Shown here: positions 26,903 to 51,304 of the stretch, piece by piece
Layout: each line of letters opens with the position of its first letter
How positions within the stretch are numbered: the stretch's first letter is position 1
Assembly: GCA_003971905.1 (NCBI GenBank)
Contig: RSEE01000070.1
Coordinates: forward strand, 310,001-361,304
Direction: 5' to 3'
Length of the DNA: 51,304 bases
From: Moniliella sp. 'wahieum'
Taxonomy: Eukaryota
Translations under genes and position numbers: made by a program
Notes under the pieces: generated by a model
What the model was told of the DNA's origin: nothing
Database searches by the model: none
What the model saw: the letters and a program-made list of their open reading frames with translations, nothing else

Positions 26903-27275
26903 GGGGACCAACCCCAGATCATCCATGTCCATCATTATCGATCATCGTTGGGCAGGTACACGCCATCACACATGCAGCACATGGCACTCGCTCGTTGACC
27001 CTTCCGTTGGCCTGCTACAGTCGGCGCGTCTTTTTTTCTCACACTCGCCGTTTGCTGCGCTAGAGTTGTTCGAGGAACCATTGGCCTCCACAGGCACACG
27101 TCTATATCGGCAGAGCAGGCTGCGTTCTCAGCTGCTCAGCTCAGCCTGGTAAGATATGAGACTGGATTGAATGAGCTGCCCATATATATGGACTGGCAAT
27201 CACCGCCTGGAACCAAATTGTATCCCCTCTTTCCCTTTCGCCCTTTCCTAAGCGCCCAAAAAGCCCCCTCTCGTC

Positions 27276-29420
27276 ATGGCTACGTTTGGCGGCAATCTCG
27301 CGGGCCTCGCCCTCTCGGAGCCTGCACCTGGCCGCGACGATCTCGTCCACGCTATTGCCCAGGAGGACCGTGTGTTCGACGACTACAAGGGCGACTCATC
27401 GGCCTCCAACAACTTGAACACCTATAACGAATTGGTCTACCCCAACAATGGCGCTACTCTCGAGGAGTACATGTACTGGGCCCGAGTCCAACGTGAGGAG
27501 GAACGCCAAGAGGAGCTCAAGGGCCATGGAGCCATCTCGTCCACGTTTGTGGACGTGTTCGTCGGCATGTACCGCAAGTCGCGCTGGCTGAAACGAAAGC
27601 CTGCTCGTGCCGAGGCTACTATTGCCGAAAACGCTGAGGTGGATGAAAACGGCTACCCTGTCGAAAAAAGTAATGGCAAGCCGGAGACGCTCACCGCCGA
27701 CCTCTCCACCCCCCAGTTGGAGGGCATTACCGACCCCAAAACGCTCGAAGGCCTTACCACTGCCCGCACTATGCGCATTGCAAGTGCGACTAGTGTCTTC
27801 TTCCTGATTACCACTGATATTCTCGGCCCTAGCTCGGCTCCTTATGGTATGAGTCAAAACGGCTGGGCTCAAGGCAACATTCTCTTCTTTGTGTTTGGCG
27901 CCGCGGCCGCTGTGGCTGCTTTCGCCATTCAATGGCTTTTCCTCCGACTCGACTCGACTCGCTTCCCTATCAAGACGTACGGTGACATTGGCCACCGTCT
28001 CATGGGTCCGTGGATGCGCCACGTCATTTCTTTCCTCCAGTTTATTCAGCTTATCGTCAACTGCGGTCTACTTGTGCTTGGTAACGGTCAGGCTCTGGTC
28101 CAGATTCTTCACCAGTACCACCGCAAACTTTGTTTCAGTGTCTGCGTGGTCATCTTTGCGATCATTGGCATGATCCTTGCTCAGAGTATGTTAAGTTTTG
28201 GTGATCCCCACGGTACAGACACTTTGTTACCCACAGCGTACTGACTCATTCTCTTCGTTTCTCCTTTCAGTCCGGTCCCTCCGCGGCCTCGGGTTGATGT
28301 CTAACTTGTCTACCGTTCTGAACTGGGCCATTTGCATTATCAGGTACGCTCTTCCTGCTGCGAGTACTTATCGGGTCAAGCTTAACCATTTTCTTGCCTT
28401 TTGTCCACAGTATGGTCGTCATCAAGATCAAGGGGTACAACGTCAGCACCGTCGCCATCCAGCTGGAAAAAACAGACAGTTGGGTGGAGGTCCATCCCGC
28501 TGTTACAACCACCTGGCCTCACCTTGACATTTCGGACCAAATCCAAGGTGTCAACCTGCTTATTTTTGCCTACGGTGGTGCCATGATCTTCCCTGAACTG
28601 TTGTCTGAGATGAAGCAGCCCAAATCGTTCTGGAAGGGCTGCTGCATTGCCCAGCTTGTTATTTACGTTGTCTACGTTGTTTACGCATGTGTCATCTACA
28701 GCGGAGGTACGCATTGCCTCTCCTCTTTTTGCCCCCTGCTGTCAAATGTACTGACCCTTGAAAATTGCTTCAGCCGGCCAATACTCTCTGTCGGTCGGGT
28801 ACCAGATTATGGCAGAAGGCGCCCCTCTGACAGTGTGCAACATCTTCAGTATCATCACTGCTGTTGTGGCTGCTGCTATTTACGGTAACGTCGGCGTTCG
28901 CGTGGCGTACGTGAGTGTGCTGGAAGACATTTTCCGATTCCCTTCCATCTTTACTCGGGCTGGACGCGTGATCTGGTGCGTGTGGGCCGTTTTCTTCTGG
29001 GCACTTGCGTTTATCATTGGTTCGGCCATTCCCCAGATCAACTCGCTCTCGGGTCTTATCTCGGCCATTGCGATCTGCAACTTTTCCTACACATTCCCCT
29101 TCCTCTTTGTTTTCGTTTGGCTGGTCCATGCCGATGCTATGGCAGCCGATGGCGAGTGGACCCCCTACAGCGGCAATATTCGCGTTGACCACTGGACCCA
29201 ATGGAGCCGCTTGCGCCGCGGCTTGTTTGGTGGCGGCATGTACCGATTGCCCCTGGGCGTTAAGCTGCCCGCCTGGCTGGTCAAGTGGTTCGTATTCACC
29301 CTCTCTGGGCGGCCTAACCATGTCGGGCTTGGGTCTCTACGCCGCTGCCATCACCCTCCGCACCGCCTTTGAGGGCAGCGGTGCCACCGCCACCTCCTTT
29401 GGGTTGCTGCCACTGTCTAA
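27276..29420 (+). CDS. neutral amino-acid permease (Aa_trans / Mtr-like family)
   Basis: LEEYMYWA, VFFLITTDILGPSSAPY, IKTYGD, FAYGGAMIFPELLSEMKQP, IYGNVGVRVAY, FSYTFP; introns ~28186-28270, 28344-28410, 28707-28773. Confidence 0.9.
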
Positions 29421-30770
29421 AGTGGTATTGTTCGCTTGCCTTTTGTGATTCCCCTCTGGCGACGGATTGCTTCTGTTGATCAATAGCAGTAACGAAGAAT
29501 GATCCCGATGAGACGCCCACATGATGTACACAAGGCTTGCAGTAGTTTTCTTTTACTCAACGAAGATAGAGAACTCTGACCCTCTCCACTGCAATAAGTT
29601 GTTACGGGGAGCTCCGGTTATCTCGGGACGCTGATGAGTTCCGTATGTCGTATAGACATCACGTCCAAACACGCCTCAGTCCCGTTAGACTCGCAAGAGA
29701 GCCAGAAGGAGCCTTATCCATGCCGCCGATACTGTCCGCGGAGAGCCAAGGGCGAACTGGACTTATACAGTACGAACCTTCATATCTGCGGTGCCCGGTC
29801 TTGGCAGAACCCCTCATCTACTGCGGCTCACCGGATCGCAGCCGTTTGGCAGAACAGGCCTCCCTTTGCCTCTTACAGTACATTCCGTTTATACCTGTCT
29901 TGAGGCACGTGAGGTTTGGTTCTTTCTGCATATACGCAGCCATGTATAAAAGGCTTATACTCTCTGTGATCATTATCGACCATCATATCGTTGGTGCCCT
30001 CGATTTCCCGTTCCTCTCTATCCCTTCTGTGACCTTCTACCACCCTTACGAATTTATGACTCATGTCGAGTACGCTATACAAGCCGCGGTTACTCTCATC
30101 AGTAGCACTTGCACTTCTTTAAGATCTGTCTGTGCCCGCCTGCTACAGCGTACCGATGAGAGTGTAGTAACGCTTCGATGAACAGCGTGGCCAACTTCGA
30201 AGATCCTGGATCCCTTCAACTGTGGTCTAAAAGTACGCGACTCCTACCTCGGACGGTCTGACCTGCAGCCTTTGCACACAGGCAGCCACGCAAACTAGAG
30301 GGTCTCTCCCCCTCGCCTCTACACCCCCTCGGTTCAACCCGGATCTCTGTAGCAGGACCTAGTACCGTGCGAGACACCGGTTGGCCTGTCCAAGGGTTTA
30401 TACCTCTAAATTACTGGGGTAGGCCCCACCTCGGGACTCCCCTCATGACCAATTTCGTGCTTGGACTGACGGATACACAGTGTGCCATATAAATCCCACA
30501 GATCGACAATCATTGACTCACAACCCACTACTTTAATTGGAAACTCAGCGTAGCGACGTGCGACGGTAGGCAGAAACCAGAAGCAGATGAGCGAGACCGA
30601 GGTAACGAGTTGACTGAAGAGGCAGCGGCCAGAGGGAAAAACAGAGGAATTTACCAGCGGTGTCTCTACTATACAAGAGCAGCGGCCTACAAGTATGGAC
30701 GGGCTTCATTGAACTGTTCCACCGTCTACTGATCTCTCGCCGCCTTGGTACTAGTAGCCACCCTTCCTGA

Positions 30771-30937: not shown

Positions 30938-32957
30938 TTACAAACCAAGGGCTTGGCGAAGGAAGGGAACGCCGAGGAAGCTCTCCAGCTTTCCGATCTC
31001 ACCGTTGAGCAGGGTGTTTTCAAGAACGTTCTCCAAAGCCGTAATGCCTGCACGAGGGAGAAAGGAAAATTCACAAGTAGGTCAGACTCACATGGTTCAC
31101 AGTATTGTCCCCGAGGCAGGGGTAGAAAATATAAAAACGTACCAATCTTGTCGTCAATGTTCTTAACAAGGTGCATGAGCTTCTGGAGCACACCATCCGG
31201 GAACTGTCCGTTGACGAGACCAAGCCCCATGTCGAGCTTCGTCAGGCCAGCATCCTGCTTGAGTTGGGCCTGCATACAATTGCGTCAGTAACCTATTGCT
31301 GTTGTGAAAACGAGAGGGAGAGACGGGTGGAAACGTACCAGAGATCCTCCAAGCTGAGCATCGATGGCGTCCAGGGCGGGAGTAATGCCGAGACCCTGCT
31401 CGATAAGGGCGACGACATGGCCAACGGTCTGGATCAAGCCAGGGGCAGGGGCGGTGGCCGGACTAGGGCCAGCGCTCGGGGAAGGTTTAGCGGCCGAAGT
31501 AGGGGCAGCGCTCGCAGAAGGTACGGCCGCCGAAGTAGGGGCAGCGCTCGCAGACGGCACGGGGGCTGAAGTAGTGCCAGCGGTCACGGAAGGTACGGCG
31601 GCCGAAGTAGGGACAGCGCTGGCGGAGGGTACAACGTCCGAAGTAGGGACTGCACTCGCGGAAGGTACGGTGACCGCGCCAGTGGGAGCGCTAGCGGTAG
31701 GTACGGCGGCCGAAGTTGGGACAGCACTCGCGGAAGGTACAACGACCGAAGTAGGGACAGCGCTGGCGGAGGGTACAACGTCCGAAGTAGGGGCAGCGCT
31801 CGCGGAAGGTACAGTGACCGCGCCAGTGGGAGCGCTAGCAGTAGGTACGGCGGCCGAAGTTGGAACAGCACTCGCGGAAGGTACGACAGCCGAAGTAGGA
31901 ACTGCGCTCGCGGAGGGTACCACGTCCGAAGTAGGGACTGCGCTCGCGGAAGGAACGACGGCCGAAGTAGGAACTGCGCTCGCGGAGGGTACCACGTCCG
32001 AAGTAGGGACTGCGCTCGCGGAAGGAACGACGGCCGAAGTAGGAACTGCGCTCGCGGAGGGTGCAACGTCCGAAGTAGGGGCAGCGCTCGCGGAAGGCAC
32101 AGTGACCGCGCCAGTGGCAGCGCTAGCGGTAGGTACGGCAGCCGAAGTTGGGACAGCACTCGCGGAAGGTACAACGACCGAAGTAGGGACAGCGCTGGCG
32201 GAGGGTACAACGTCCGAAGTAGGGACTGCACTCGCGGAAGGTACGGTGACCGCGCCAGTGGGAGCGCTAGCGGTAGGTACGGCGGCCGAAGTTGGAACAG
32301 CACTCGCGGAAGGTACGACAGCCGAAGTAGGGACAGCGCTGGCGGAGGGTACCACGTCCGAAGTAGGGACTGCGCTCGCGGAAGGAACGACGGCCGAAGT
32401 AGGAACTGCGCTCGCGGAGGGTGCAACGTCCGAAGTAGGGGCAGCGCTCGCGGAAGGCACAGTGACCGCGCCAGTGGCAGCGCTAGCGGTAGTACGGCAG
32501 CCGAAGTTGGGACAGCACTCGCAGAGGGTACGGCGGCCGAAGTAGGGACAGCGCTCGCGGAGGGTCCGGCGCCCGAGCCCGCACCAGCGCTCTGGGAAGG
32601 TCCAGCGGCCGAGGTAGAGCCGTTGCCCGCAGAAGGTCCGGCGCCCGAGCCAGTACCAGCGCTCGGGGAAGGTCCAGCGGCCGAAGTAGTGCCGTTGCCC
32701 GCAGAAGGTCCGGCGGACGAACCAGCGCCAGCGCTCGGGGAAGGTCGAGGGGGCGAAACAGTGCAATTGCCCTCAGAAGGTCCGGCGGACGAACCATCAG
32801 TGCCATTGCGGCGCTGCAAGTCAAACGTGTTGGTGATGTCGTACTGCAGCGTGTTGCGAACCATCATGTCGTTGCCCATCGAGGGGCGGTCCAGAGGAAT
32901 TGCAGTGGCAGCCGTGGCGGCAAGGACGGTAGCGAAGGCGACAGTAAATAACTTCAT
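30938..32957 (-). CDS. secreted Ser/Thr/Pro/Ala repeat protein with a duplicated amphipathic C-terminal domain
   Basis: signal peptide MKLFTVAFATVLAATAATA, LQRR dibasic site, NGT/NGS sequons, ~35 12-aa repeats; introns ~31271-31338 and ~31048-31143 give an end of ...GVPFLRQALGL*. Confidence 0.8.
31480..32745 (-). repeat. 36-bp coding minisatellite (VPSASAVPTSxx / VPTASAPTGAVT / AGPSxxxGxxSx)
   Basis: directly visible period-36 repeat. Confidence 0.95.
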
Positions 32958-33064
32958 CTTCGGCAATCCGCAATGTGTTGCTCAAAGGGCGAGAAAAGGT
33001 GGTAAGGAAAGGAGAGGGCGTGTGTGGGTTGGTGGGGAAAGAGAGGGAAGGGTCGATGGGATCC

Positions 33065-34390: not shown

Positions 34391-34891
34391 AAGCTTCAAG
34401 GGGAGGATGCCATAGACGAAACTGAAAAAATGTGATAGGAGTGAGTAGGGTCTAAATTCTCATGAGTACCATGAGTGCATGAGAACTATTTGATAATCGA
34501 TCACTATGCTTGCACGACCAGCATGTTGCTCAATGAGATCGACATGGAAGATGAAACGATGGTGTGGCTTTAAGTACTACTAGACAAGAAGACCACCGGG
34601 CCTACGGCTCGGTCGTCAAGCTTCAAGCTTCAAGGGGAGGATGCCATAGACGGAACTGAAAAAATGTGATAGAGAGCGAGTAGGGTCTAAGTTCTCACGA
34701 GTACTGCGTACGTTGAACGTTGAGTACTGAGTACTGAGTACTGAGTACTGAGTACGAGTACTGAGTACTGAGTGCATGAGATCTGAGATCTGAGAAACTA
34801 TTTGATCATCGATCACCACGCTTGCACATCCAGCATGTTTGCTCTCTGGCTCGACATGGGAGATGAAAACGATAGTGCGGCTTTATAGTAT
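34391..34891. repeat. diverged tandem duplication (~190 bp copy 1 at 34391-34577; expanded copy 2 at 34618-34891)
   Basis: both copies share aagcttcaaggggaggatgccatagacg(a/g)aactgaaaaaatgtgatag...agtagggtctaa...ctatttgat...cagcatgtt...tcgacatgg. Confidence 0.92.
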
Positions 34892-35083: not shown

Positions 35084-36476
35084 GATGATCGATGATCGAT
35101 GATCGATGAACTAATTCCCTGGTCTTTAAGCTTTAGTTGAATTGTTGGCTGGACCTGCTTGGTATTAGGGCCCGGCCCAGCGGTGGCCAGTTGTAATAAC
35201 GCGTAATGCATAACGTAACGCGTAACGCTCCAATAACAGGAAAAAGAACAGCGGAAAGAACAGGAGAGAACAGCAAAGGAACTGGTGGTCTCGATGATGC
35301 GATGATGCATGCCAGGGGTGTTAAGCTTTAAGCTTCAAGCTTCAAGCTTCGACATGGTGGCGAGGCCAAGTGTTGCGACGGTGACTGGCTTCACCGGTCG
35401 CGGTGCACTTCCGGCCTCAGGCCTCATTAATCATTAGCCCCGAGGCTCCGCGGGCTCCGAGGACTGCTGACGCGGCGTACTCGCGTAAGCCAACGACTAG
35501 TAGCCTTCTCCTGTAGCCCTGTCCTGCTTCCTACCACCAACGCCTATCTCTCGCCCGCGATCGATTGCCTACGCTACTGTCCAAAACGCTTCAGCATCCA
35601 TATCCATTGCGGTTGCCATAGCCGAGTGGACCAGGACGTCGCTACACAAGTCGGAATTGATGCAGATCTAGTGACCGCGACAGGACCACTGCGACATGTG
35701 ACCAGAACTGGCGAGAAACAATATCGTAAGTGCATCGCATACGGTACCACACTTCAAGCTTCAAGCTAACGTTCAACGTTCAACGTACTCAACCTCGGTC
35801 GACGGCGATCAACGCGCCACCGAGCGTGTTGTGCTGACGCGCTGACCATAAATGAGACCATAGGTCAACAAATATGAGTTCACGCGTTCACGTTCATGCT
35901 ATATTTTCCGACATTCCTGAGGCCTTGCATCTATCAAATGTCTGCCAGAGATGTGTTGCTATGCATGTTACATGCTACACTGAGAGTCATTTTATACGGA
36001 GAATGGGCCCATAATCACGAAATGATTGAGTGCGGGGTGTGATTGTGACAATTATGTAACATTTTTCTCTATGGAGAGCCTAGCCCACCACACTTCAATA
36101 ATTCTCTGGAAGATCCATAAAGAAGTGTGAAGCAAGAGTACTCATTGGAATCATAGTGTAGACACATTCCCCAGATTCCGCTTCTTTGATAATCGAAATG
36201 ATCTATGTGAGCTTAGCGCGCGCTTAGCGCTTAGCTGGGCTTGCCACCCAATTCGCTTTCTCTCTATGTCGAACTCGTTCTGTGGGTGACATGGTGACAG
36301 GCTGTGGTTATGTTTCTTTGCAACGGATCATGAAACGGAATTGCTATAATTAACCCTGTCCCAGCCTTAACCTCTGTCAATGATATGGATGCAAAAAGAT
36401 AGGCGAAACTGACAAGTAACGCGTATAACATGTGGATCTATCTTTGGTATATATGCATGATGCATGATGCATGATG
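35084..36476. repeat. cluster of 7-bp palindromic arrays
   Basis: GATGATC 35084-35109; TAACGCG/TAATGCA 35197-35227; AAGCTT 35321-35350; CCTCAGG/AATCATT 35413-35437; AAGCTT/AACGTT 35752-35793; GCTTAGC 36211-36235; ATGCATG 36453-36476. Confidence 0.9.
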
Positions 36477-39267
36477 GCCGAGGGACGTGTTGAACTATCG
36501 AACGGTTGAATTTCTCCATCGCTATACGGTGGAATACGGGGACCAAGTTGGGGCTAAAAGCTAAGTGAAGCCCCGACAATACCAGTCTTACACAATGGCC
36601 CTCAGATCATGGTCATCTCGTGTAATGTTCTAAAAGAGTCGGATATATTGATGGAAGCCCGAAAGCGCCGATGAACACGACTATGACACCTCCTAAAATC
36701 GAGGTTCTAGACCCGTGGACTACACAATTCCATTCAATATTCACAGTCCATATCATATGCGAAACGCTTTGGCTGGACAAAGGAGACACACCGCATGGAC
36801 GCCATACTGGTGTAGTGGCGCCGGTAGCCCCACAAGTCCGGAACCTTCGGGTTCATCGTTCACGTTCATTCCGTGCAATATTCCATCCTGGCGGACAGGA
36901 ATATTCGCTAGCCTCTGTAGCTCATGCATCATGTGCAATGCAATACATACCAACTGCCTGTTCTCTGGTCTAAACACCGTGCCCGCCAGACCGCATATCG
37001 GGTATTCTGTAACCATATCATTTACAGAACTGAAGGCTGTGTGGGACAAAGAAACGCAGCGCTAAACTGATCTGTTCGTCCAGCGTGCGTTGCTTGTTAG
37101 CGTTAGCGCCATCCCGTTTAAGGAACCGCAGGGGAAACACCAGGATATCAGGACCCTCTGGTGCCCGCCATCCGTTCCCATACCCGAGGATGCGCATTTG
37201 GATACGGATGAACGCGGTAGACATCCGAACGGTGAACCATCTCCATTGAGGCTCGCAGTCAATTCCTTCCAGTTCCCAAGCACCTAACCTGCTGTATTGG
37301 TGGCATAGTATCCTCGCGTCGTCAAAACCAACGGGAAAACGATTCTTGGGTACGTCCCTGGTACTTGGCGTTCTTGTCGCATTCTGTTTGTTCCAGCAGC
37401 CGAAGTAACTCAAAGGTGTCGCGGTGCTTTCATATACCACCACGCGGTACGCAGCTTGTACCTCCTGTGTTCCCGAGTCGCAAACACCTCCGCGCCTGAT
37501 TGCTCCAGGTCCCATCACGCGATAGTCAGTGTGTATTGCCTTCCTCCCACGCCTCGCCTCATCCTTTTCCTCCACAGTGGGCTCGTTGTGGACGTGGTTG
37601 TCAGGGATGGAGGCACGAGCTGTGGAGAAGACTCCCGCACTACCTCAGCAATGCGCCAAAATTGTGGACTGTGTGCTGGTGCAAGCCACGATGTGCTCGA
37701 GCGAGGACATGACGCCACACTTGCACATGTTGCCCGTGGAGCGCCACAGCGTGCGGACCTGGAGACCAACCTCTACCTGATTGTCGGGAGCCGGAGGCAC
37801 GGGGCTGATGGAATTGAGGAGAGCCGAATGTGGCTCGGGTTGTTGTGCTCGACCACATTGTGACCGACGGCATCGTCAAAAGCTTCTGGAGCAGTAGTAG
37901 TTGTCGGCTCTTCTACCACATCCTCCGAACAGCGCTGGCGTTGCTTCGTGCTTGCGTTCTCCGTCAGCGTGCGTGCTCCAGATCGGTCAATATAACTGTG
38001 GTTCGTTGACCTCGTTGGCCGCAGCAGTGCGTGGGGCGCAATATAACGAGTAAAGCCGGCTGCGGCATCCTCCTCTCAGAAAAGGCAAGCTGATGAGCAT
38101 GTCGGAATGGTCGTCCTTTGTACCTTGGGATCCTCGTCGCCCTGGATCCGTCTGAACACCGTGCAGATGAAGTATATATACTGCAACCGTCCCGTTCTCC
38201 TTCCAAAAAGTACACCAGGCCATCAGCACGACGTCGTAGAACGATCAGAAAACCTGGTGGCTCCCACCACTCTCCAAGCTATATGTGGCACCAGAGTGTA
38301 TGTGGATGAACGTTGCGGCCCGAAAGCGATGAATTCGAGGGATCTCTCCAAACGAACTAGATCTTTTCTCACCTATATAGCATTTTCCTTACCGTGGTGG
38401 TCAAGTGATCTGGGGTGCTTCCTTGTGTTGGAGAGGAGGGCAGTGCTACCTGACATTCGCACGCCAGCACCTTCCTCCTTCCGCAAAATGAAATGAGCAT
38501 CGTGACAGGCATTATCAAATGCTTACATAATGAGAGCCCGTTGGCCCGCTCGGGAGAGCGGCAGGGCGATGGAGATTGAATATTGACGGGTTTCCCACGC
38601 CAATACGTACATTTCAAAACCGCCGTCCCCCGAACTTGCGCAGCGCAGTTGGTCCTAGCGGGCCATTCACTCGGCCCTTTCAGCTCCACAGCACGCAGTA
38701 TTGCGCCCGTTGCAGGTACGCACGCCTCTCCTTCCACCTCTTCTCGCCCATGTTGCGCCGTCGGCAGCCGCCACCGCAGCCGCCCCGGGCACCTCATCCC
38801 CCTGATGCAGAGCCAGCGGCGGAGCCAGATGCGATCCCCCTTCGACCCCTCGGCCGCTCCAGTGGCGTGGACAATGCCCCTGCTCCTACCCGGCCACCAC
38901 CGACGGCGATGGCGAGCAGGGGCCGCCTTTGCCACAGGACGACGCCTTGGGAGAAGAGTGGACGTGGGAGACGTTTCCCTTCTCGGACATTCTCGCTGCT
39001 TCCTTTGACGGCTTTGCGAATCCAATCGCCCCAACCAAGGCGACCAGGATGAATGGGAGTGGGACGTAAGGCGGTACACTGACCCTTCGCCGTGTTGTGG
39101 GTCATTGTCTTTCTCGGCTTTGTCTTTGGGTTTTCCCACAGGTTACTTTCCCCCTTCTTGGCTGGACCTGGCGACACACTCTTGGCTACCCCTTTCAACC
39201 CGCCTTCAATCTCTCCGCCCCGACCAACAGCAACGTTTCCCTCTCCCCCTGCACTCTCCCGCGCGCA

Positions 39268-45734: not shown

Positions 45735-46511
45735 TCAGCCAAGCATTGAGCGCTCAGATTCGCTGCACCGGGGGGGCAAGGCAATTGCACGAATCCGCCG
45801 TTTCTTCCAGCTTGCCCAAGTCGCGAACAGAGAGGATACGCACGTCCAGACTGGTGGATCCGAGAGGGTAGCGGTCAACAGGCTTGCCACCTGCACCTCT
45901 GTCACGCCCCATCCCTCGTCGACAGGAAGCAGCTCCAGAAGGACATAAAGAAGACCCAGAGCTGAAGCCTTCTGTTCCTGGCTACCCTGTTCAATGTGCT
46001 GAATCAAACTTGGGACCAGCTGGGGCCACGCACCATCCGCCAGCTCAACAAATCGCCCCGACCACCTGGGCCACCCACGAGCGCAGATTCGAAGGCAGCG
46101 ACGCTTCTTCCACTGGCAGCCAGACGAAGTAGCCTGACTTTCATGCCCTCCCGCATATCGGAAGACAATGTGGACCATGCTTCGGGCACGCGTTTCTGTA
46201 GCCCCAACGCAGCACTTTGCCGCACACCATCTTCGGGAGCCTCGATCAGGATCTGGTACAACGCAGGCACCAAGGCAGGGTCGCTGGCCAGCGCGCCCAA
46301 TCCCTCCTCCGCCGCCTTGACTGTGGCAGTGTCGGGTGGAGTGTCTGGCCGAGCAGCGAATGCATCGCCACACGTACTCGGGAGCCGCAGCCGTGATGAG
46401 AAGAGGCGGGACGACGGTGCCAGGAGGCGGACCGAAAAAGTCAAGTCGGCAGGTGTTGTTGTTTTCTGCCGGCTGCCCAAAAAAAAAAAAAACACACTCA
46501 CCAATTGACAT
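45735..46511 (-). CDS. N-terminal fragment of an importin-beta (Kap123/importin-4-like) protein; truncated or pseudogene
   Basis: ATGTCAATTG|GTGAGT intron, then PDTATVKAA...VPALYQIL...DGVRQSAALGLQKRV...WPQLVPSL HEAT repeats; similarity appears to be lost after ~45780. Confidence 0.7.
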   Translation of the reverse strand: MSIGECVFFFFGQPAENNNTCRLDFFGPPPGTVVPPLLITAAAPEYVWRCIRCSARHSTRHCHSQGGGGGIGRAGQRPCLGACVVPDPDRGSRRWCAAKCCVGATETRARSMVHIVFRYAGGHESQATSSGCQWKKRRCLRICARGWPRWSGRFVELADGAWPQLVPSLIQHIEQGSQEQKASALGLLYVLLELLPVDEGWGVTEVQVASLLTATLSDPPVWTCVSSLFATWASWKKRRIRAIALPPRCSESERSMLG

Positions 46512-46736
46512 TTCTGTCTAACAGTTTACCTCCAGTTTTTAGTCGCGCCTGGCTTAATTTACCCTGTCTGTGCTCAGTCATCCAAGTCATCGCAGGCCAC
46601 CGCCGACATCATTTTAGCGACTCGCCTCGGACATCTCGGCCCTCTCCTCTCCCCACACCCTCCACCGTTTGTGCCGGCGTACATGTCGGCCCATTCTAAT
46701 ACATTCATCATACCTTCTGGAAACAGAGAATCACAA

Positions 46737-48602
46737 TCAAAGCTTCGCTTTTTGAGCCTCCGCCTTGAGACGGTCACGCAAAACACGATGCAGGATCTTG
46801 CCCGAGGGCTACAGCAAGCCAAGACAACCGCGAGTCAGTCCCCCCGCGTATTCGCCTCACCCCAGCCATGGAATACAAAAGACGTACCTCTTTGGGATTG
46901 CTTCTATGATCTTGACTCCACCTTGAAGACGCTTGTAGTGTGCCACCTTGCGATCGACGAACATACGCGTCTCAAGACCTAAGAACATTTCGTCCTTGAC
47001 TCGGGTTTGGGTACAATGAATGCCAGAGGATACTCGGTTGCCTTCTCCTCCACCACTAGGGGGACAACGGCACAGTCAGCCACCTTGTGGAAACTGAGGA
47101 TGATTGCTTCGAGCTCGGCTGGAGCCACTCTGAATCAAGAAAGGTTAGCATCCACACAAAGAGCAGATTTGCCCTCACACATTCTCTCACAGAAGCGTGC
47201 AAGGGCAAAATGTGACACGAGGAAAAAGGAAACGTACTGTCGGCCTCCTACCTTGATGAGATCCTTTGATCTCCCCGACAGGTACACCTCTCCCTCCTTG
47301 ACATAGCCTAAGTCTCCTGTACGGAACCACCCATCATGGAAAGCATCTCGCGTAGCTTCAGGACTGTTCAAGTAGCCCATAAACACATTGGGCCCACGAA
47401 TCCAAATCTCCCCTTCCAGCGTGGCCCCATTCACTCCTTTTCCCTCTGTGAATCCCACATCCTTCCCACTGTCGAGTTCAACCAAGCGAAGCTCAATGCC
47501 AGGGAGAAGACGACCAGAGCACGATGGATTCTCCTTCATATCGGGACCAAACGATGTCTTGCTCAGGGCGATCGATGTCTCGCTCAGCGCATACCCCTGG
47601 CCTATCTTGACCCCCAGACGAGACCGCACTTGATTCGCTAGCTCCCCCGACAGAGGTGCCGCCCCACAGAGAATGTACTTGACAGAATAGGTCAAACTGG
47701 TCCAACAAGGGCTCTTGGCCAGCAGCACCATGACGGGTGGCACGGCAGCAATGTAAGTAATTTTGTGCTGCTCAATCGCCTGCCCCATCTGGACCAAGTC
47801 AAACTGACGACCGATAATGGTGGGGGAACCAGAACGGAACGCACGAAAGATGAACATGATCAACGCATAACCGTGGTACATCGGCAAGTTGCATAAATAC
47901 CGCTCCTCCCCTAGGGGAGCCCTGATTCGAGCATGACCAAGGCAGCACTTAGGTGCGGTGGGAAAGAAGTGTACCCTTCATGCGCCCTGTGGTGCCCGAC
48001 GATGAATGATCGCGGCCGCAGTGGTCTCGGGAGAGGGAACTGGATGGACCGGCAGCACTTTCGTTGGTCCAGCACGTGCGCAAGTCCTTCTCCCCTTGGG
48101 GCCCTGATGTCATCGCCTCCTCGTCAGATAACAGCCAGACTGTTTGGCTCTCCGTGGCCTGGGGGTGCTTTGCCATCTCCAACCAGCCCGGACTCGTTCC
48201 AAACCCTGGCTCGCAGGAGAAGCCACAACATACTGACCTTGGCATCGGCAAAAGGGTGGCTAAGCTCTTCGGCGACTAATGCAGTGCCAATGGGGACAGG
48301 GACGACACCAGCAACGAGACGGGCGTGGATCAGAACGGGATACCAGATCGAGTTGTCGCATACAATCGCAATTGTCTCGCCGGGAGCAAGACCCAGGGTG
48401 TGCCGCAGGGCATGGGCCAGCTGATCGGCCAAGGCGATCACTTGCCGTACTGCAATGTCTGGCGGCCATCGAGGGTGGTGAAGACGGGCGCGTCAGGGGC
48501 TATCTCGTCCCGACCGGAGCGGAGCAGGTGCACCAAATTTCCTTCGGGAAGGGGCGGCAGCTCCTGAGGCGAACGCAAGATCTGGGGGGAAAGGGCGGCC
48601 AT
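46737..48602 (-). CDS. 4-coumarate-CoA-ligase-like AMP-dependent acyl-CoA ligase, peroxisomal (PTS1 AKL)
   Basis: SSGTTG, LPMYHGY, GQGYALSET, GEIWIRGPNVFMGY, GWFRTGDLG, GRSKDLIKVGG, ends KILHRVLRDRLKAEAQKAKL*. Confidence 0.92.
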
Positions 48603-49117
48603 GGGGGAGCAAGAAAGGGGCAGAGATTTGGTGAGGCTGGGGGAGGGAAGTGTGGAAGGAGGGGGCGAGAGATTTATTTTGGTTGGGGCAAAGACTGCTC
48701 TGATTGTGGAGCGTCGCGAACCAACGTCCAACGCTTAACAGCATCCCTGAATGCTCGCTGATCCGCATCTCTCACGAACTATAGTCTTTTTGGTTGGGAG
48801 AATAGGATGGAGGAGCCCCACAAGTTGCGACAAGCGAAGAGGAGGGGACAACAAGCAGCTTCACACACCCCGCGCAAATAAATGGCCGTGGTGGGGTTAG
48901 CGCAGCAGCCACGCGGGGTAAACATATTACGTACGCTGTACGTTCGGACTAGGATGTGTGCCCACACGAACTAATCATTAATTAGGTTGGCCCCGTGCAA
49001 TGACCAAGCGGCAACTGCGGGTGGGGACGAGAGGGGCCAATTTCCGCTCGCAGCCAGAGCTGATGAGACCTGGAGTCCGGATGGTCCTCGAGGGTGATGC
49101 AATCGCACTGATGGTGG

Positions 49118-49292: not shown

Positions 49293-51304
49293 CCCCCCCG
49301 GGCCAAGGGACCGAAGGAAAGCCGTAGGCCAGAAACTAGGAAGAATCGAAACGAGAAGAAAGGGTGCTAAATCAAATTGTTGGGAAGTGGAGAGAAGTTT
49401 GGGAAGACAACAGGTTTGGTGAACCAATCAGAAAGATGATCCACTCCGGGGACATGGTGAACGACAAGTTCGCCGCGATGGATGCGTTCGCGTACCTCAT
49501 GGTACCAAACATCGATCTCGCGGATCTTACCCAGGCTACCGAGCTTCTCGGCAAGAGCCTTGGCGGCAGTGTTATCGACAAAGAGTTGGATGGGGTGCGT
49601 GGCAGAGCAAATGCCAGCTCAAAAAGAATGTTGCGCACAAAGAGGGCATCGCGCAGCCCATCGCCCATAGCCAAATACTCGGAAGCGGCCGTGTTGCTCA
49701 CTCCTTGGTTTTGTGTCTTGGTATTCCACGACACTGGCACGCCGTAGACAAAAACGACGTATCCAGAAACAGACCTCGAATAGCGTTTGTCCGAGGCAAA
49801 GGACGCATCCGTATGTAACTCGAGTAGTGGTCTTGCCCGGTCAGGCGTTAAACGGAGAGAATGGTCAGCAGTACCCTTCAAATACCGCAGCAAGCCAACG
49901 GCAGCGTCACGATGGGCTCGAGAAGGATCATCCAGGAAACGAGCCAAAAAGGTTGCGGCAAATAATGTGTCCGGGCGTGACATGCGCGCGGACCACATAG
50001 CGGACCCAACCATCGAGCGGTAGACGTGATTCTCGTCGCGCGTCGAACGTGATTCGTGTTCGGGGCGTTGGGAAGAGGGAAGGGTATGGCTGAGCGGGAG
50101 ACGTCGAGGATGGTCGTGAGTCATGTCGTGAGTAGCAAGCGTTTCAGCAATGAATTTTGGCTGGCTCACATAGAGACAGCCATTAATGCGGTCGTACTGG
50201 CATCCGAGGTGGAAACGAAGGGGGCCATTGGATTTAATCTCAATATGGCGTCGAAGCTCGACAAGGAAGCAATCGTAAATTGCCTTGATCGGCAAGCAAC
50301 AAGGAAATCGTCGTGTGGATGGCTAAAAGAATGAGGTTCAAGGAATCGGTATGACGAAGGAAGATACACGGCTCTGACTTGAGACTGGTAAACCCAAGTC
50401 GATCACAGAGAAAAGTACGTAGCCAGTCACCAAAATTAGCCCCGCTTTGATGTAGACCGTAAAGACTCTTCTTCAGCTTCCAACACTTTCCCTTCCCTTC
50501 GGGAAAAAAAGGAGGCGGCCGAAATATATCTATTCCGTGACATCAGCATAAAGATAAGCGGCTTCAACATCGGCTGTGAAAAGCTGGAGCCCTTCTGCCT
50601 CGGAAATGGCAATTAAAGTATTGACGGCTGATGTGCGAACCGCAGGAGCAAACGACTTGGTCCACGACCCAGGCAGCTGACGATGCCCGCCTACAACATA
50701 GCGGGCACGGTATTGACGAAACGTCCTTCTGCATCCGTCTTGGTGCTTAAGACCAGATACCGGGCAGCACACGCGCCCCGGGAGGAATGGAAACGACTTC
50801 TTTCACCTTCCGAGATTCAAAACGCGTCAGCTCAACGCGCATGGCAGCAAGGACATCGTCAAAGCAGGATGGCCGACTAGATCCCGCACAGACTTGGGCG
50901 CCAACGGAACACCATCGGTGGTGACGAGAAGTGCGTCCTCGTCTCGCGCGTGTTCGAGGGCAAGAGCAAGGGGAGGAGATGTCGAATCCGAAGCGGGGAT
51001 CATGGACGAGTTGGGCATGGGGCCGAAGACGGTGACAAAGGTGGGCAGTCAAGAGTGGAAGGGAGACAGGAGCATGGAACAGGGTGGGGACGTTAAGAGC
51101 AAGGGGCACAAAGATGGATCCTGGGGTTATCTGAGCAGGATGAGAGAGATCAAGGGGAGGGGCGTGGAGTCGAGCACGCCGTCCAGGGTTACGACGTACC
51201 AACGGGTTGTGGAGCAGGCAAGAAGGCGCGGCAGAAGGAATTTGGGAGACAATGGGAGGAGGGGAACAGGTTCGGTACAGTAGGAGGAGCAGGCCAAGGG
51301 TGGA
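49118..51304 (-). mobile_element. Ty1/copia LTR retrotransposon, 3' half (RT + RNase H), continuing beyond the window
   Basis: YRARYVVGGHRQ, DVEAAYL, LKKSLYGLHQSG, AIH(T)DDFLV, YRSMVGSAMW, RPDTLFA, HTDASFA, EYLAM, SDWFTKP in copia order. Confidence 0.93.

Follow-up and report, generated by a model that had tools for sequence, protein, structure and literature searches.

Seven-base TNA-palindrome arrays in a Moniliella genome as probable repair scars of a cut-and-paste DNA element

Introduction

The hairpins formed by RAG are even-centred. Flank hairpins are ascribed to hAT, Transib and Muta1 as well as to RAG in the available part of PMC5499845, and Artemis opens hairpins mainly at +2 (passages of PMC2175297). 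The palindromes left by Ac/Ds are odd, being centred on the complement of the element-adjacent base (excerpts of PMC5873905). According to the accessible sections of PMC12730594, fungal hAT7 makes 7-bp duplications, and the CMCT transposases (EnSpm/CACTA, Mirage, Chapaev, Transib, Plavaka, and ESTA) share motifs with RAG1. The nearest mention of comparable scars that we found concerns the '10-bp repeats' of Ustilago maydis, which have been proposed as transposon footprints (a mention in PMC4081816). Non-autonomous Helitron1 (HLE1) elements have a 5' TC, a 3' hairpin, a CTRR end, and an A|T target (sections of PMC11417382).

The window analyzed here is a stretch of 51,304 nucleotides from Moniliella sp. 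'wahieum' (positions 310001–361304 of contig RSEE01000070.1, hereafter C70); array statistics were taken from 251 kb of the same contig. P-nucleotide footprints are already known, and this locus adds an allelic third copy, a Helitron remnant, and polarized gains. A literature search that covered few subscription papers and no supplements found no description of a 7-base scar that occurs across a genome, recreates its own target, and starts tandem arrays.

Results

The genes of the window are fungal; its YAK1-like kinase reached at most 74–76% identity among the proteins listed, and the best named matches were from basidiomycetes. Contig C11 is the allelic haplotype of C70, collinear with it across most of the window and differing by 3.4% substitutions. 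The gene region at 27252–29400 has further copies on C11 (95%), C91 (89%), and C156 (89%), and these four copies suggest that the assembly may hold four haplotypes, arranged as two subgenomes with a pair of haplotypes in each. Directly past position 30449, C91 and C156 show a rearrangement compared with C70, and a search of this second subgenome for an outgroup copy of the duplicated unit described below found no homolog, so it provides no outgroup with which to polarize the unit. Across 215 kb, C70 and C11 differ by 1184 single-base and 376 two-base indels, a load that suggests an error-prone assembly and calls for caution with single-base differences at the unit.

Several other features were recorded. 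A minus-strand gene at 31285–32981 contains about 36 copies of a 36-bp repeat and encodes a Pro/Ser/Ala/Thr-rich product with a signal-like start; it has no Pfam match, and its repeat number differs in C11. About 3.3 kb at 45790–49057, including the frame of an AMP-binding enzyme (47135–47977), is unmatched in C11, which has 479 bp there. The minus-strand frame at 49372–50322, which has no Pfam match, is presumably a remnant of a copia-type reverse transcriptase/RNase H. Elsewhere in the assembly, a 143-bp segment (L116:4787–4929) is inverted between the C17 and C62 alleles.

Among the 42 exact period-7 arrays of the window, 31 have the form (TNA + 4-base palindrome)n, compared with none of the 3–6 arrays in each of 10 Markov simulations. 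The 251 kb of C70 contains 196 TNA-palindrome-TNA cores, against 4–11 in 5 simulations, whereas cores built on ANT, CNG, and GNC number 11, 23, and 25, at or near simulated levels. The density is about one array per 1.5 kb in C70, which would extrapolate to some 47,000 arrays in the assembly if C70 is typical.

The extent of the repeated bases was equally regular. In 63 of 170 runs (27 + 36), the match continued for exactly two more bases on a single side only, the minimal array being 12 bp, and the class with five matched bases comprised 65 runs in the 251 kb, against 0.4 simulated. The smallest array of a slippage microsatellite would be a full tandem copy of an existing unit; here the modal matched run was 5, not at least 7. 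The inversion centre lay exactly 2 bases outside TNA in 222 cases (1.5 expected), compared with 14 at 1 base (14.8 expected) and 2 at 3 bases (0 expected); the other cores gave 2–4 against 2.8–5. The palindromes are not in general centred as in hAT footprints, and the one-base odd class is similarly enriched across all four cores.

Outside the arrays, spacers combine the first bases of xy y'x' with the last bases of z'w'wz. This two-ended spectrum, counted as TNA pairs of which some overlap, comprised about 118 cases of the +7 type, 31 five-base, 13 six-base, and 2 seven-base spacers, and 9 plain 7-base duplications; the simulated level was at most 0.5 for each of the +7, five-base, six-base, and plain-duplication forms. 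Scars that keep both full overhangs were nearly absent (2, both ambiguous). N stays constant within each of the 11 compound arrays that combine two different palindromes, and in 87 isolated scars the target is constrained only at T, N (mostly C or G), and A. The initial annotation had proposed that an inverted copy plus a direct repeat, rather than simple slippage, is needed to produce such arrays. This proposal holds: the 63 of 170 arrays, the fixed inversion centre, and the polarized long terminal repeat (LTR) gains described below all indicate that arrays are probably born as a direct repeat plus two inverted bases.

The duplicated intergenic unit is present on the plus strand as copy 1 (34391..34576, 186 bp) and copy 2 (34618..34890, 273 bp). 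Both copies, and all of the strings quoted from them in the initial annotation, were found where it had placed them; its description of a tandem duplication needs correcting, as 41 bp unrelated to either copy lies between them and they are therefore not head-to-tail. Nearly all of the length difference falls at array sites, as it had noted: 84 of the 87 extra bases of copy 2 are accounted for by the compound array (77) and by the second AAGCTTC unit that it had also pointed out (7), and the other 3 are single-base gaps. Outside the arrays (182 columns), copy 1 has 7 private substitutions, a count that omits two array-edge columns, together with 3 private single-base gaps relative to copy 2 and C11; copy 2 has 5 private substitutions, one 11-base substituted block, and one extra A; and C11 has 2 private substitutions. 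The substituted block, at about 34840–34850, is private to copy 2 and is not explained by the array rule.

Copy 1 contains the compound scar CA TGA GTAC CA TGA G TGCA TGA GA (34461..34484, plus strand). Its first part is a 9-base scar private to copy 1, with a spacer of 4 left-derived and 2 right-derived bases; its second part is an 8-base scar (1+4) common to all three copies; and the terminal TGA GA is an unexpanded seed. Both TGA GTAC CA TGA and the shared TGA G TGCA TGA are among the scar forms catalogued in the 251 kb. Copy 1 had been taken as a simple 'before' state, a reading that does not fit TGA GTAC CA TGA, which is a separate 9-base scar. At 34491..34503 (plus strand), copy 1 also carries a 7-base scar in which the first TCA has become TAA, a change private to this copy; C11 and copy 2 share the intact scar GA TCA TCGA TCA (34803..34815 in copy 2, plus strand), reading TCA TCGA TCA. 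The earlier view that copy 2 became the better palindrome here appears to have the order reversed: a scar would be born with identical TNA copies, which makes TGATAATCGATCA a probable decayed scar.

Copy 2 begins with an AAGCTTC array that is private to it and abuts a Helitron end (34618..34634, plus strand; read on the minus strand as TGA AGCT units). Its compound array (34696..34795, plus strand) consists of GTAC units, one ACGT unit, the shared 8-base scar, and two GATC units; 3' of TGAACGT there are five TGAGTAC units, one unit without its T, and then one more. The best candidate for a birth in place at this locus is the copy-2-only unit GT TGA ACGT TGA GT (34712..34725, plus strand), which is absent from copy 1 and C11 and in which the inverted bases mirror a GT flank confined to copy 2. 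The adjoining TGC GTAC GT (34705–34713), made up of a changed unit and two bases, does not follow from the rule; its GT then acts as the flank of the ACGT unit. Toward the end of the array, TGAGATC x2 + TGAGA (34777..34795, plus strand) is common to copy 2 and the C11 allele and absent from copy 1.

C11 carries a single unit, with the left flank of copy 1 and the right flank of copy 2, and its array reads CA TGA GTAC TGA GTAC TGA TTAC TGA GTGCA TGA GATC TGA GATC TGA GA. Because this unit already has the TGAGATC pair and three GTAC-type units, neither is peculiar to copy 2, and the two copies do not form a before/after record made after the duplication, as had been suggested. The duplicated stretch is only a partial before-and-after record of array birth, and copy 1, copy 2, and the C11 allele are best read as three lineages with shared and private scars. 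A clock analysis made a root on copy 1 (gain) 2.3–4.4 times likelier than a root on C11, and this root also spares two exact contractions; at the TGAGATC site we therefore lean, with modest confidence, toward a gain rather than a loss in copy 1. The use of C11 as proof of a loss in copy 1 was dropped, as three sequences leave the tree unrooted. Polarity by CpG decay (CG in copy 2 vs. TG in the others at three sites) was likewise dropped after the LTR-panel control, which showed no CpG bias (0.040 vs. 0.044).

Comparison of the haplotypes revealed 50 clean 7-base indels between C70 and C11, against 28 six-base and 17 eight-base indels (p = 8e-5). In 13 of the 50, one haplotype has a seed and the other a seed with an inverted unit added; 5 agree with the rule and with a tandem duplication alike, and 32 have no exact fit. 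A solo LTR in the window (35371..35646, plus strand; TG...CA ends and a 4-bp CAAG duplication), which is absent from C11, belongs to a family that was used to polarize births. It contains the compound array GGCC TCA GGCC TCA TTAA TCA TT (35413..35436, plus strand), where most family copies have a single CC TCA TT seed. The LTR panel comprised 26 aligned copies, namely the window copy and 25 of at least 43 matches, and contained 14 insertions of at least 5 nt. Six of these hold 8 exact units, of which 2 (GGCC) could be plain duplications, and 4 further insertions at TNA sites fit the rule by eye, with mismatches. The CC TCA TT site is expanded exactly in 5 of the 26 copies.

Two orthologous pairs of LTR copies, L012/L014 and L013/L028, each with 3.2 kb of common flank at 84–86% identity, polarize individual events. 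L014 has TCA TTAA TCA TT GG where L012 has TCA TT GG; L013 has CA TCA TT TGCA TCA TTAA TCA TT where L028 has CA TCA TT; and L028 in turn has TGA CGCG TGA CG where L013 has TGA CG. Compared copy by copy, these differences are gains with inverted bases on unexpanded sites.

The 41 bp between the copies (34577..34617, minus strand) is a Helitron remnant: the 3' end of a non-autonomous Helitron-like element, with a hairpin, CTAG + TAG, and then T; the single-copy allele on C11 reads A|T where the element is inserted. The remnant folds into a hairpin with z = -1.6 and ends in CTAG TAG. In the haplotype comparison, an element of 300–335 bp was found twice in C11 and was absent from C70, and the spacer matches the end of this family, which has 336 candidate places, 40 of which were scored. 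Full family copies (L081, L082, L083, L085, L086, and L090) start with 5' TC, an end that the window remnant lacks, and A precedes 5 of 6 host-flanked family starts. All 30 matched 3' ends have the hairpin motif and terminate in CTAG (12), CTCG (15), or CTTG (3), with T as the next base. In its 5' TC, 3' hairpin, CTAG-like end, and A|T target, the family resembles Helitron1 (HLE1) as characterized in the accessible sections of PMC11417382; it differs in that 18 of 30 ends are CTCG or CTTG instead of CTRR, and the comparison at the window itself is with the 41 bp of 3' end kept there. Several full family copies sit within or adjoin heptamer arrays (L081–L110).

The duplication of the unit is separate from the arrays and is an ordinary Helitron-associated rearrangement. 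A Helitron would have occupied the A|T site that borders the unit on one side; AGCT is common to the far end of the unit and the Helitron 3' end, and recombination at this short homology would have given two copies flanking the 41-bp remnant. We infer this route from the shared AGCT; under it, the copies could be two old alleles, or duplicates that arose before or after C70 and C11 diverged.

A further repeat in the window (37005–38172) is a decayed piece of a high-copy repeat with 991 candidates and at least 39 other places at about 75%; a second end facing the opposite way lies at 36354–36398, and copies of this repeat often start about 7–10 bases inside Helitron-like 5' ends. It was considered as the agent of the arrays and rejected, as it is not an element with terminal inverted repeats (TIRs). 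Another candidate, TNAnn + CTCACTG as an element end, gave 412 matches against 238 in the control, but 30 inspected loci had no common end sequence.

The search for the agent found no filled TIR element with a 7-bp nnTNAnn duplication in 884,517 scanned bases (about 1.3% of the assembly), and no filled element with such a duplication among the large haplotype indels in 251 kb. The genome has two Tnp2 (PF02992) loci, on C17 and C34, and a search of both for element ends or a target duplication detected neither. The C17 locus is present on both alleles, and a long homolog of its Tnp2 frame was not found. The C34 locus is single-copy: its Tnp2-like gene (L118:8262 to L119:1872) has long open frames of 446, 251, and 543 aa, with no terminal repeats detected and no allelic copy found. 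The hAT (PF05699) and KDZ (PF18758) profiles had no match in the genome and the Plavaka (PF18759) profile had no match, the control also being silent in each of the three cases; the MULE (PF10551) profile had no match. The Rep profile (PF14214) matched at 3 places in the genome. An Rfam search gave two matches, both far below threshold.

Discussion

We consider it fairly probable that the seven-base arrays are scars left by repair after excision of a cut-and-paste DNA element, one that makes a 7-bp nnTNAnn duplication and leaves RAG-like hairpins on the flanks, which are opened 2 nt from their tips. The pattern, the two-ended spectrum, the gains, and the repeated hits can be read in the compared sequences; the insertion, the hairpins, and the enzyme are what we infer behind them. 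An element would insert at a 7-bp site wz-TNA-xy and duplicate it; its excision would close each flank into a hairpin whose tip coincides exactly with the end of the duplicated 7-mer; and a host nuclease would open the hairpins mostly 2 nt from the tip, as in known chemistry, to leave 4-nt palindromic overhangs. End joining that retains all or part of either overhang would then yield wz TNA (start of xy y'x')(end of z'w'wz) TNA xy, most often as a +7 product and sometimes as +8, +9, or a plain 7-base duplication. As every scar recreates a TNA site, repeated hits build pure and compound arrays, with growth probably aided by slippage once two units exist. The presence of the same 7-mer in both joined ends is what a 7-bp target duplication would give, and the dominance of the even-centred form points away from hAT7 and toward RAG-like chemistry. 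The number of inverted bases, at most two per end, agrees with hairpin opening at +2, where Artemis mainly cuts. The most likely agent would be a CMCT-clade (EnSpm/Transib/RAG-like) transposase. Against the scar reading, a density of about one scar per 1.5 kb would take very many insert-and-leave cycles.

The missing filled element keeps alive a rival in which a nuclease hits and runs: an immobile or domesticated RAG-like protein, or another host enzyme, would cut with a 7-nt stagger at TNA, and both ends would be filled in, sealed as hairpins, reopened, and rejoined, so that no insertion would persist. We regard this as unlikely, even though the same 251 kb contains at least 13 polymorphic non-tandem scars and no polymorphic filled element with a 7-bp duplication, the C34 Tnp2-like gene is single-copy with long open frames and no detected ends, and one LTR site is expanded in 5 of 26 copies. 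It counts against this rival that no enzyme is known to us that would first fill in a 7-nt stagger and then seal both ends as hairpins. Slightly more doubtful still is the more specific proposal of a standing mutator of intergenic DNA: an immobile RAG-like nuclease that would cut nnTNAnn, cause no lasting insertion, and leave heritable V(D)J-type joints which recreate its target, so that arrays grow. Short template switching, in which replication or repair would copy 2–3 bases off the opposite strand and return upstream, can yield an inverted copy beside a direct repeat, and T could pair with the A of TNA to supply a homology of one base. It would not favor TNA over ANT, CNG, and GNC, which are at chance, and it fails to predict two-flank junctions such as TCA TT TGCA TCA in L013; we hold it to be improbable.

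Ordinary slippage would make the arrays microsatellites of self-complementary heptamers and copy 1 a contracted form, with no inverted copying. Long pure arrays probably do slip, 5 of the 18 footprint-type 7-base indels are also plain tandem duplications, and the TGAGATC pair common to C11 and copy 2 may have been lost from copy 1, which at this one site is a real possibility that we rate somewhat below even. Yet the commonest array has only 5 matched bases, and the polarized gains in L013, L014, and L028 contain bases that no tandem duplication of the orthologous copy yields. As an account of the whole, this reading is very improbable; slippage is refuted as the birth mechanism and is a likely contributor to growth and loss. 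There is hardly any probability left for a Helitron Rep nuclease as the maker of both the arrays and the duplication. A Helitron end is present at the locus, the genome has Rep-domain matches, and a core lies within 30 nt of 4 of the 30 Helitron 3' ends, compared with a rate of 2.1% in random 30-mers (p = 0.003), but with coding DNA counted in the background, insertion between genes may be all that the excess reflects; moreover, the A|T target has no TNA-centred symmetry, and 26 of 30 ends have no core.

If the arrays are scars of a cut-and-paste element, they provide polarized natural evidence that tandem repeats can be born by hairpin repair, not by slippage, and would preserve, on a large scale, a fossil record of how a fungus opens hairpins and joins ends, with a geometry that is RAG-like and not hAT-like. 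On the scar reading, a CMCT-type element should exist whose 7-bp duplication has yet to be described; the reading may also bear on small, unexplained repeats in smut genomes. The 10-bp repeats of Ustilago maydis are comparable, as far as the mention in PMC4081816 goes, as many tiny intergenic basidiomycete repeats read as footprints.

Among the known systems, Kyakuja (KDZ) elements share the 7-bp duplication and the occurrence in basidiomycetes (accessible sections of PMC12730594), and PF18758 found no match in this genome, in a search whose control was also silent. Muta1 (MULE) makes flank hairpins like those proposed here, but its excision in yeast is >90% precise (available part of PMC5499845). 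Ac/Ds (hAT) footprints likewise combine a duplicated target with palindromic bases from hairpin repair, and hAT7 has the right duplication length; the scars described here differ in having 222 even against 15 odd centres, with a hAT-type centre base in 6 of the 15, and are more uniform than the Ac/Ds footprints of yeast and plants (excerpts of PMC5873905). The CMCT likeness lies in the RAG1-related transposases and the two Tnp2-domain loci of the present genome, whereas the CMCT duplications given in the accessible sections of PMC12730594 are 2–5 bp, against 7 here. The closest likeness in geometry is to the P nucleotides of V(D)J coding joints (RAG, Artemis:DNA-PKcs), which are even-centred inverted flank bases, mostly two, at either or both ends and with trimming (passages of PMC2175297). 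Unlike those joints, the scar described here has the same 7-mer at both ends, is heritable and genome-wide, and recreates its own target.
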